This document shows positions 36,201-39,200 of a stretch of 53,140 bases of DNA, piece after piece. The stretch is from the IMG/VR virus record IMGVR_UViG_2872703611_000002; one strand, 5' to 3'. The DNA is from a virus (lineage: Duplodnaviria > Heunggongvirae > Uroviricota > Caudoviricetes). A program made the position numbers. Within the stretch, counting starts at the first letter, position 1, and each line of letters begins with the position of its first letter.

Positions 36201-39200
36201 CCAGCACGACAACCTCCTGTATTGGACGTACACCAGTCCTGATAAATATGAGGCTGTCTCATCATTGATGAGATACAACTATTGGGTATAGTTTCTGTGA
36301 TTTTGTTCTGTAGAAATGGAACACAACAACCAGTCACCACCAGTACTTCTTTAAATACGCCAAGTCCGACGCAAGCTAACCTTCTAGTCCGCTTTGAGCG
36401 AGAAGCGGAAGTATGAAACTTGTTCTCACCACCGATGAAGCATTACAAACAATGCAGTTAGTTTATCAACGGGCAGGATCAGGGCGTACTCTCAAGCGGT
36501 TTAAGATTGATAACCTCAGGTACATTCATCTTGCCACGTTTCATATAGCGTATTTGCGACAGAGTTCATGTGAAGAAACACCGACTACGAGGATGATATT
36601 CATGTTGTATTGTTCGGGAAATCACTTCTTCATATGGAACCCTCATCACACTTACAAAACCATTATTAACATAGCTTAAGTGTTAATCAAAATTGAGCCA
36701 TTCACATTACATTAGGTAAGGTATCTTACTAAAAATATTGTAATGTTTTGTTTTTAAAGATAAAGATTTCAGGTTGAAAACCAAAAATTTTTAGTTAAAA
36801 ATATTTATGGTGTATGTAAAAAATGATAAGGTAGTGATAAGACATAAGTTTGTAAAACACATGTTAAATTTCAATGCTGATGAAAAAGCTTAGCGTTAAT
36901 CAAAACAGGAGCAAGAAGATTGAAAGTTATTAGCTTAATCAATATGAAAGGTGGCGTTGGTAAGTCAACATTGGCTACCAATATTGCTAATCATCTTTCA
37001 GATAAACTTGGGCAAAAAATATTATTAATAGATATCGACCCACAATTTAACGCAACGCAATGTGTAATGGATACAAGCAAATATGTTGCACATATGAAAA
37101 GCGGAGGCGATAGCATATGTGATATTTTTTATAGTTCAAAAATTCGACTATCTACAATGACTGGTCCTTTAGTTAACACACCTAAAGAATTAGCCGATAT
37201 AACACCAATTCAATTAAATGATAATTTTCACATTGTTCCCGGAAGCCTTGGGCTATATAAAATTGAAATGAAACCAGGAGAAGGGATAGAAAACAAGCTT
37301 AGACGCTTTCTTAAAATCCATGAAAATGACTATGATTATGTCATAATTGATACCCCACCAACCCCATCAGTTTGGATGTCCAGCGCATTAATTGCATCTG
37401 ATTATTACCTCATTCCAGCCAAACCCGATCCTCTTTCGATCACTGGTATCGATCTATTAGATAGCATTATAAATGAGAAGAGAGAAAATTTCGATCTTAA
37501 GATTGAATGTGCGGGCATAGTTTTTAATATGGTTGAAGGTAATAGTAATTTATATGAGGAAAGTCTTCGTTACTTCAATAATCAAAAACGTTGGCGTAAT
37601 AAGATCTTTAAATCATATTTGAGCAAACGTACTGAGTTGGCAAGAAATCAAACAAGAGGCTTATTTATTAACAATTTAACGGATGAGGATATGAAGTTTT
37701 CGCTGTCTAAAATTACTGACGAACTTCTCTCTAGAGTAGGTGACTTATGACTGACAAAAAAAATAACTCAAAAGAAATTAAGCAACTGTTAAACTTTTTA
37801 GAGGAGTTTTCCTTTATTTCAAAAAAATTATCAAGAATCAACTTTATTGAATTACTTCAAGATAGTTATACTGATAATTTAGAAGTTAACGAAAGAAATT
37901 CAAAGTCCAAAAAAAATGATATTAAAGGTTTCCTTGTTGGGTATCTTCCGAGGATTTTATTAGACAAAGATCTCTTCCAAAAAAATAAAGATATAGATGA
38001 TTTTGCACGCATGTTAGGTATCGAAATCAGCAGGCCTGAAAAAAGATCTAGAGAGGAAATGATCGGCATAATCGTGTGTGACGTTCACGAGAAAAACTCA
38101 TCCGATTTAGGTAAGGCTTATAATATTATCAATTCAATGTCAAATAACCCTCTAGTTTTGAGTAGAATAAAAGAGAGGAAGAACCTTTCTAGCGCTCAAA
38201 ATGAGATATATGACTGGAATGAAGTTATAAAAGATATATTCAATAAGGACTAACAATGTCGAGAGAAGTAAACAGCGATTTCACTGAGTTAGTTACTTAT
38301 TTCTCTGAATATAAATTAAAAAATGTTTTCGAGAATATTAACTCAAGAGGGAAAATAAGCATGATACATAAGAGATATTATTCTTTTATGTGCCTTGTTT
38401 ACTGTTTGTATCATTTCTCCAAGGAGAAAATAGACGCCAACTCATTGGAGCGATTGCAAGAAGCTTCATCTGACCTTGGTACAGCTATGTTTATGGTTAT
38501 AAATGGTGCATACAAACCAGCAAATCTAATGATGCGAAGTTATATTGAAAATTCTTTAAAATCAATCGGTTGCTTACTAGATCCTTCAATACTTGAAGAA
38601 AAATCATTGTTTAAGGTAATTGAACAAACTGGGGAACATCCTGTCTTCAAAAAAAATCCTCTACTACATGAAACTTTAAAAGCTGAATACTCTTCGTTAT
38701 GCAGTCACGTACATACAGCTACTGTAAAAGAAATGGCTCACATAAAAGCTTTAAATGTTTTTCCCGAAATAGACTTGGTTAAAATAGATAATATTTCGAA
38801 GGTGATTGATAAGGTGGTTAAGACTATGATATCAACTATCATAAGAATTTTTCCTGATGTTTTCTTTTCCTTTGCACCTGAGTATCGAGAAAAAATCCTC
38901 CTTAGCTTAACCTCTGCACAACGAGCCTCACTTCATTCCTTAAGTGATTAACTAACAAGTATGACATAAAAACTATCCTATTGTGATAGTTTTTATGTTC
39001 ATTAAGATGACTATATCAGGAATTATTGCCGAATTTTAATTTTCATATTGATTTTACTATCTCTCACCAACTCTTGTAAGTATCCTTCCGCCACAAGCGG
39101 ACCATGTGCATTTAAATATCTGACCTAACGTGCCGTAACGCCGCAATGTCCGCTTCTGGCACAAAGCAGACGCCCACTCTCACGCGAATGCTTTGCCCTT

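Follow-up and report, generated by a model that had tools for sequence, protein, structure and literature searches.

The 53,140-nucleotide IMG/VR virus record IMGVR_UViG_2872703611_000002 (the window, meaning the whole stretch of DNA that was analysed) contains at positions 36920-38951 an AT-rich operon of three tightly coupled genes, the first of which codes for an ATPase of the ParA/MinD class. According to the RefSeq annotation of an identical genome the host element is a Qin-like lambdoid prophage (dicB, ydfABC, Q, RusA), and the trio is labelled as a 'ParA family protein' followed by two hypotheticals. The question raised by this locus is what such an ATPase and its two partners do in a prophage of this kind, for which an earlier note on this DNA had proposed an undescribed module of anti-phage defence, abortive infection or superinfection exclusion. 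Our analysis indicates that the three genes form a real and coherent system that is mobile and probably defensive, carried in a cassette bounded by palindromic sites.

The three-gene operon and its proteins

Gene 1 (36920-37750, + strand; 276 amino acids, aa) has a TTG start with AGGAG 9 nt upstream and overlaps gene 2 (37747-38253, + strand; 168 aa) by 4 nt (ATGA), and a gap of 2 nt separates gene 2 from gene 3 (38256-38951, + strand; 231 aa). Coordinates and spacing were as noted earlier, and judged by this arrangement the three open reading frames (ORFs) are translationally coupled. The GC content of the operon is 0.29-0.35, compared with 0.52-0.56 in the phage genes on its left and 0.44-0.53 on its right; overall the trio has a GC of 0.327 against 0.519 for the remainder of the window. 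This AT-richness and the finding of the trio in several unrelated carrying elements uphold the earlier suggestion of horizontal acquisition.

The earlier note had counted a lack of conservation of the trio as a unit among the outcomes that would speak against its proposal. In every locus with enough sequence the order ParA (~276-286 aa), partner (153-175 aa), gene 3 product (230-243 aa) was constant and the genes were overlapping or tightly spaced. The trio is kept down to 23-27% identity in gene 3 and in hosts ranging from ~29% to 65% GC, with trio GC below host GC in every case. All three proteins could be aligned, with shared motifs, across at least seven diverged loci, and since they are kept as a unit in these loci they are real genes and not chance ORFs; on this comparative evidence the three genes co-evolve as a unit. 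The carriers include a second lambdoid prophage (L004), with the trio between the P replication gene and RusA/Q, a Pectobacterium integrase island (L007), where it adjoins Mrr and two CcdAB pairs, an Enterobacter island (L010), where it lies near the Eco29kI restriction-modification (R-M) genes, a low-GC metagenomic contig (L009), and a contig with ~65%-GC flanks (L013), where it follows a Dam methylase/ParB_N pair. In the prophage loci L014 and L015 it stands directly downstream of an S24 CI repressor, in the same orientation, and upstream of Bro-N and integrase. A scan of genome contigs with the close-family alignment returned no relatives. Directly upstream of the trio in L013 (3935-6549) are genes for a Dam-type methyltransferase, a ParB_N-domain protein and a 285-aa protein without a Pfam match, which resemble the methylase + ParB-nuclease + HEPN (MAE_28990) operons of Anantharaman et al. 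2013 (PMC3710099).

The deviant Walker A motif (KGGVGKST) from which gene 1 had been placed in the ParA class was borne out by Pfam matches to AAA_31 (1.4e-37) and to the CbiA/ParA families (CbiA 1.4e-18). The protein also matches phrog_164, its best NCBIfam match is ParA_partition (90 bits, cutoff 180), and its nearest relatives in the PDB are type Ib partition ATPases, namely pSM19035 delta (3e-21), Soj and ParF. The signature-lysine P-loop MKGGVGK[ST]T (MKGGVGKST in the window copy), D-DPQFNATQC and the Walker B motif IIDTPPTPS are invariant in seven loci. The ParA domain covers residues 1-247 of 276 and the protein has no extra domain; its sole match in PADLOC-DB v2.0 is a 37-residue P-loop stretch to PDC-M28B (3.8e-5). 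Judged by these motifs, gene 1 codes for a ParA/MinD-class ATP-dimer switch with intact catalytic motifs.

Gene 2 codes for a small helical protein that always accompanies the ParA gene. Its AlphaFold2 (AF2) model is all-helical with a predicted local distance difference test score (pLDDT) of 75, and its recurrent features are a Lys-rich N-terminus, FLEE-S-W, LxGxLPxxLxDxxLFxxNxD..F and an invariant RPEKRSRxExIG core. This core may be a SAP/HeH-like motif, which we regard as a lead and not as an assignment. No family in Pfam, NCBIfam or PADLOC-DB v2.0 was matched above threshold, and a search for ParB, ribbon-helix-helix (RHH) or helix-turn-helix (HTH) families in Pfam and NCBIfam gave no match, in agreement with the earlier observation that the ATPase lacks a ParB-like partner. 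Genes 2 and 3 gave two full-length PHROG matches, phrog_12497 and phrog_12265, both to families of unknown function, and no match for either in PDB sequence searches with single proteins or profiles.

Relatives of gene 3 were far more numerous in an exhaustive profile search (390 clusters at 50% identity) than in a word-index search (18 clusters). Nearly all members of these ~390 clusters are full length (230-245 aa), and among 70 members that are 20-64% identical the residues E69, R94, E98, Y145 and H153 are invariant; these polar residues form a conserved putative active site. The AF2 model is all-alpha and soluble (pLDDT 84). No family in Pfam, NCBIfam or PADLOC-DB v2.0 matched gene 3 above threshold, and the 70 relatives gave scattered single matches to PADLOC-DB v2.0 (E>=1e-3). 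Below threshold, PF05168 (HEPN) was matched by 2 of the 70 members (best 9.5e-5) and by the L004 orthologue (0.02), DUF5677 by 5 of the 70 (best 4.6e-4), and DUF4145 at 0.046, and all of these signals fall on the same core region. At E<=0.01 none of the 70 members matched a Pfam model of the HEPN_MAE type, and no curated Pfam HEPN_* family was matched either. The predicted fold is probably nearest to HEPN domains, and we consider with reasonable confidence that gene 3 codes for a divergent, non-canonical HEPN-like protein, not an established member of that group. The description of genes 2 and 3 as two unplaceable proteins thus held for gene 2, which has no family, but not for gene 3, for which the sub-threshold HEPN-type signals point to a probable placement; the structural search recommended for the AlphaFold model of gene 3 did not provide one, since the Foldseek matches in the PDB were non-significant.

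Boundaries and genomic contexts of the cassette

The operon lies within a cassette of 2.79 kb (36387-39171), and the block common to all other Escherichia coli contexts has nearly the same limits (36386/7-39171, with the right end at 39171/39174). Each end carries a 24-bp palindromic junction motif. The left copy (36387-36410, - strand; the + strand reads GTCCGCTTTGAGCGAGAAGCGGAA) has the CGCTCA type of loop, found on the FI side in P2, and the right copy (GTCCGCTTCTGGCACAAAGCAGAC; 39148-39171, + strand) has the GGCACA type, found on the G side in P2. The left boundary forms an inverted repeat with 39149-39171, so that the cassette ends are inverted copies of one motif. The right boundary doubles as the left boundary of a neighbouring DUF2254-BCCT module, and genomes without the trio keep this right site with other cargo on its left. 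The position of the trio between hokD/sok and the DUF2254 + BCCT transporter pair was confirmed by the RefSeq annotation of the identical genome and by the Rfam match to sok. Immediately to the left of the cassette the hok/sok-type locus is complete (35901-36075 and 35751-35963, both - strand; Rfam sok 110 bits, hokD annotated), and the region stacks a type I toxin-antitoxin (TA) locus beside the candidate system.

The consensus of the palindrome is approximately GTCCGCT-YYTSGCWCAR-AGCGGAC, with GGCACA and CGCTCA as loop variants, and wherever homology between cargo modules breaks off, whether in P2-like or lambdoid prophages or in CP4-type islands, a copy of it is present. At least 120 viral contigs of IMG/VR contain it. 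Among the matches listed, 16 convergent pairs flank cargo of 0.5-3.3 kb, most of it AT-rich. Defence models were matched by two kinds of motif-bounded cargo, one by PADLOC Hp1/Hp2 and the other by the TIR-like PDC-S35. In a lambdoid prophage of strain H1 the same pair of sites holds DUF1971, an MFS transporter, gamma-glutamylcyclotransferase and LysR. Judged from the junctions, one pair of sites can receive different cargos in turn, and this resembles a site-directed exchange of cassettes. The 24-bp motif is probably not an attC, dif or REP element, judged by their consensus sequences.

The distribution of the cassette in E. coli was determined with junction-spanning queries in 5,426 complete genomes. 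It was present in 133 of them and in four contexts: a CP4-type island beside a type I R-M system with an embedded DarTG (120 genomes), the Qin-like prophage of the window (8), a second CP4-type island (4) and a P2-like prophage (1). The copies are at least 99.8% identical, the three coding sequences are intact in all 134 of them, and 134 of the 135 places are chromosomal. These numbers reflect a few recent transfers plus clonal spread. The single near-full match in PLSDB is a record of 4.8 Mb, so no genuine plasmid copy was found there, the plasmid matches being confined to the neighbouring DUF2254 module, and the sequenced phage genomes of INPHARED contained neither a DNA match to the cassette nor a homologue of gene 3.

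Two further P2-like contexts were found in IMG/VR (L017 and L021), with the cassette flanked on one side by the genes for the tail fibre (H) and its assembly (G) and on the other by sheath or baseplate genes, beginning with the sheath gene FI. In the P2 reference (L142) the motif copies at 15335-15358 (G side) and 17432-17455 (FI side) bracket a 2,073-bp fun(Z) cargo, and the P2 homology of L017 and L021 ends at 15358 and 17430. Because this homology runs up to the inner edge of each motif copy beside fun(Z) and no further, the sequence comparison indicates that the trio is an allelic alternative to fun(Z) at the Z/fun hotspot of P2-like prophages, the window copy itself being lambdoid. The fun(Z) gene blocks the growth of phage T5. 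Z/fun was described as a second defence-enriched locus of P2 by Vassallo et al. (10.1101/2022.05.12.491691) and was found again by iLund4u (10.1101/2024.10.15.618418). The trio shares with fun(Z) and with the PD-type systems of Vassallo et al. the G-FI interval, the junction sites and the character of AT-rich foreign cargo; it has no sequence relationship to fun(Z), differs from it in protein content, and its cassette occurs also outside P2-like phages.

Function of the cassette, rival explanations and precedents

We favour, with slightly better than even confidence, the reading that the cassette is a self-contained mobile anti-phage or conflict module in which an NTPase regulates a toxic effector, abortive-infection or TA-like in its action. 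In this scheme the effector would be the product of gene 3, probably an RNase of a non-canonical HEPN type by which either cell or phage is arrested. Sensing or switching would fall to the ParA ATPase, which would alternate between a dimer with bound ATP, probably associated with DNA, and an ADP or monomer form. Gene 2 would serve as the adaptor, its basic N-terminus stimulating or reading out the ATPase and its conserved core tethering or masking the effector. Infection by a phage would perturb the ParA cycle and release the effector, and the resulting abortive infection or exclusion would benefit the host and the resident element. It is from the observed parts list, conservation and contexts that we infer these roles, the RNase activity and the trigger.

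The genomic context favours a defence role more strongly than the earlier note could know, since the trio occupies the P2 Z/fun slot, a CP4 slot beside R-M and DarTG, and a slot adjacent to the CI repressor. Several results weigh against a defence role. The 133 E. coli occurrences amount to four insertion events, and a single context, probably clonal, supplies 120 of them. Cassettes with the same boundaries also hold metabolic cargo (GNAT, NUDIX, HAD, glyoxalase, transporters), and because of this the slot is not defence-specific; it is an accessory slot enriched for defence, not one diagnostic of it. No defence model of PADLOC-DB v2.0 matches the trio. The assignment of gene 3 as HEPN-like is weakened by HEPN-type Pfam signals that are all below the curated cutoff, by a non-significant Foldseek search against the PDB, by the lack of any PDB sequence match even with a broad profile, and by the absence of the canonical Rx4-6H motif, R94 and H153 being 59 residues apart on different predicted helices and the local motif being R94-x3-E98-N99. 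The all-helical model of gene 2 gave no fold assignment, and the sensor, adaptor and effector roles are ours by inference.

The nearest solved relatives of gene 1 raise the possibility of a partition or stabilisation module, in which gene 2 would be a novel helical ParB-like protein and gene 3 an accessory protein, together retaining an excised or plasmid form of the element. Like type Ib partition systems (pSM19035 delta/omega, TP228 ParF/ParG, Soj/Spo0J), the trio combines an ATPase of this class, with its motifs, and a small gene immediately downstream; gene 2 follows parA as parB does and has a basic N-terminus and a possible SAP/HeH nucleic-acid-binding motif, and ParA_partition is the best NCBIfam match of gene 1. 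This match, however, scores far under its cutoff, and gene 2 belongs to no ParB, RHH or HTH family. Six loci, searched for centromere or operator arrays, had no iterated centromere-like repeats up- or downstream, with short two-copy repeats at most, and the space before ParA is only ~65-140 bp in L013 and L014; a plasmid-partition remnant with ParB homologues and a parS-type array, named beforehand as an alternative, was thus not borne out. The trio is chromosomal in E. coli apart from one of the 135 places, the 4.8-Mb PLSDB record is its nearest approach to a plasmid, and it travels as cargo of integrated lambdoid and P2-like prophages and CP4 islands, at hotspots and not beside replication or integration genes. 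It also has, in contrast to known par systems, a conserved third protein with enzyme-like invariant residues, for which they offer no role. Without a ParB-type partner, a centromere array or a genuine plasmid copy, and given its cargo position in integrated elements, a partition function is very unlikely.

A pure addiction module, with gene 3 as a toxin neutralised by ParA, gene 2 or both and with no anti-phage role, would suit the tight translational coupling, the HEPN-like fold and the neighbourhood of CcdAB, CbtA/YeeU and hok/sok loci, and the ParA/Soj ATPase has been predicted as antitoxin to a HEPN toxin (PMC3710099). We find it improbable as a complete account, since three components exceed what addiction requires and both the P2 fun(Z) slot and the position after the CI repressor are typical of lysogenic-conversion exclusion genes; moreover, many TA-like modules in such slots prove to be abortive-infection defences, so that addiction largely overlaps with the defence module proposed here. 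The lack of a canonical HEPN motif and the unsupportive Foldseek result would also agree with a moron that serves the element otherwise (counter-defence, control of lysogeny or induction, manipulation of the nucleoid or of cell division) and whose gene 3 product is a helical scaffold without catalytic activity. ATPases of the ParA/MinD type are known to position diverse cargo, and the same boundary-defined slots hold non-defence genes. The invariance of E69, R94, E98, Y145 and H153 at 20-64% identity nevertheless argues for catalysis or specific ligand binding, and a role in the phage life cycle makes little sense in the non-phage islands where the cassette lies by R-M and DarTG; such a moron appears distinctly improbable.

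The earlier note had not recognised the combination as a described defence or addiction system. This held for the trio itself, which corresponds to no described system in PADLOC-DB v2.0 and is unmentioned in the searched literature, including the supplements of Rousset et al. (searched by accession and peptide string). For the pairing of a ParA ATPase with a HEPN protein, and for a ParA-like ATPase in phage resistance, on the other hand, there are precedents. Anantharaman et al. 2013 predicted that a ParA/Soj + MAE_18760-family HEPN pair forms a TA system in which the ATPase is the antitoxin (PMC3710099). As in that pair, a SIMIBI-class ParA/Soj ATPase stands near a helical protein (HEPN there, probably HEPN-like here) on mobile DNA, and NTPase-controlled RNase toxicity is proposed. 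The pair has two genes, however, whereas here a third protein of 153-175 aa always lies between, so that gene 3 is two genes downstream of ParA; and gene 3 lacks Rx4-6H and any Pfam HEPN_* match at E<=0.01, the HEPN_MAE-type models being taken as a stand-in for MAE_18760. No experimental validation of the 2013 pair was found in the searched literature.

The second precedent is GiPD474, a ParA/MinD-like ATPase of the Gifsy-1 prophage that confers resistance to phages T4, FO1 and Alf5 (PMC12724215, 2025). It is likewise a prophage-borne deviant-Walker-A/AAA_31 ATPase in Enterobacteriaceae and lies near a repressor module, as do the trios of L014 and L015; compared by description, it acts on its own and carries an additional domain of unknown function, whereas the trio has a bare 276-aa ATPase and two partners. 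The proposed scheme also recalls HEPN-MNT and other NTPase-plus-nuclease systems, in which a helical HEPN-type effector on a mobile element is held in check by a nucleotide-using partner with abortive-infection logic. It differs from them in that the partner is a ParA dimer switch and not a nucleotidyltransferase or an ABC/AAA+ ATPase, in the non-canonical effector motif and in the third, adaptor protein. From the type Ib partition systems the trio departs in having no centromere array and no RHH/HTH ParB, in being chromosomal cargo and in its extra conserved, enzyme-like third gene. The combination is therefore new in its obligatory third gene and in its different, non-canonical HEPN-like family, whereas the idea of ParA with HEPN has precedent.

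A more far-reaching version of the proposal joins a ParA switch reused as an immune sensor through a SAP-like adaptor, an HEPN-fold effector with its catalytic Arg and His on different helices, and integron-like cassette exchange at the shared 24-bp site; taken together, these are doubtful. Such a sensor would represent a new mechanistic class of defence, possibly sensing the status of the nucleoid or of foreign DNA, and the exchange would move modules among P2-like phages, lambdoid phages and CP4-type islands and, for the neighbouring modules, plasmids.

Further cargo and wider significance

Just after the left palindrome the cassette contains an 88-aa ORF of uncertain status (36413-36679, + strand) without a PHROG match. 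Its frame is uninterrupted in every E. coli copy, though these copies hardly differ from one another, and in L002 a 2-bp change fuses it to an upstream GTG; no counterpart was called upstream of ParA in the distant trios. It may be a gene remnant or part of a leader. The AT-rich leader (36680-36919, + strand; GC ~0.31) is accompanied by candidate sigma-70 promoters from a promoter scan (36666-36693 and 36774-36802) and by a 14-nt direct repeat, AGYGTTAATCAAAA, at 36679 and 36892. These signals are tentative, because shuffled sequence gives just as many promoters as the leader, and the Pectobacterium and Enterobacter copies show no conservation of it. A perfect 14-bp AT-rich hairpin (38964-38998), 13 nt past the gene 3 stop, is a possible terminator, although the scan scored it as one for the - strand. 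Within the cassette no Rfam family was matched, the only match, sok, lying outside.

Further copies of the palindrome were located in the window at 42821-42844 (+ strand), in L011 at 2937-2960 and 6003-6026, and in L002/L003 at 11988-12011 and ~14747-14772. The DUF2254 + BCCT (BetT-like) transporter module (39146-42844) is flanked by two direct copies and recurs, with its left-hand palindrome, in the E. coli contexts L011 and L012; from the palindrome on, its DUF2254 end has matches in more than 1,300 plasmid records, most of them for conjugative plasmids of Klebsiella. Two facing copies only 18 bp apart in L024 (5422-5445, + strand, and 5464-5487, - strand) may mark an empty or collapsed cargo site. 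Other palindrome-bounded AT-rich cargos encode large proteins without a PADLOC match, namely L088 (1570-3491, a 588-aa ORF whose product carries RNSIEH, of the HEPN Rx4H type), L071 (484 aa), L023 (397 aa) and L134 (281 + 126 aa), and these are candidates for further defence systems. Elsewhere in the window, the genes for the phage DNA methyltransferase and for the Q antiterminator flank a second AT-rich island (31750-33750, GC 0.38-0.41). Its 427-aa hypothetical protein (~32041-33324, + strand; L001 10642-11925), encoded in the opposite direction to the phage genes, is a possible moron or defence candidate.

Several other uncharacterised clusters of an AAA_31/ParA-like protein with hypothetical proteins or with a RelA_SpoT-domain protein in P2/P4 hotspots are listed in the supplementary tables of Rousset et al. 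(files 2 and 6; PMC9122126), which suggests that hotspot cargo repeatedly includes ParA-class ATPases and that this has been overlooked. The ~390 gene 3 clusters, together with these recurrent ParA-plus-hypothetical clusters, likewise suggest a wider overlooked group. If validated, the trio would be the first characterised multi-component defence system with a ParA/MinD-class switch and an HEPN-like effector; it would put the in-silico prediction of 2013 on an experimental footing and extend the single-gene precedent of GiPD474. ParA ATPases read DNA or nucleoid occupancy, and for this reason a ParA-based defence, if true, could reveal a new mode of sensing infection. The precise ends of the cassette indicate that unrelated mobile elements trade accessory modules at a palindromic site which they share. 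Such exchange bears on how defence and other cargo, among it the transporter module present in more than 1,200 plasmid records (mostly Klebsiella), spreads in Enterobacteriaceae.

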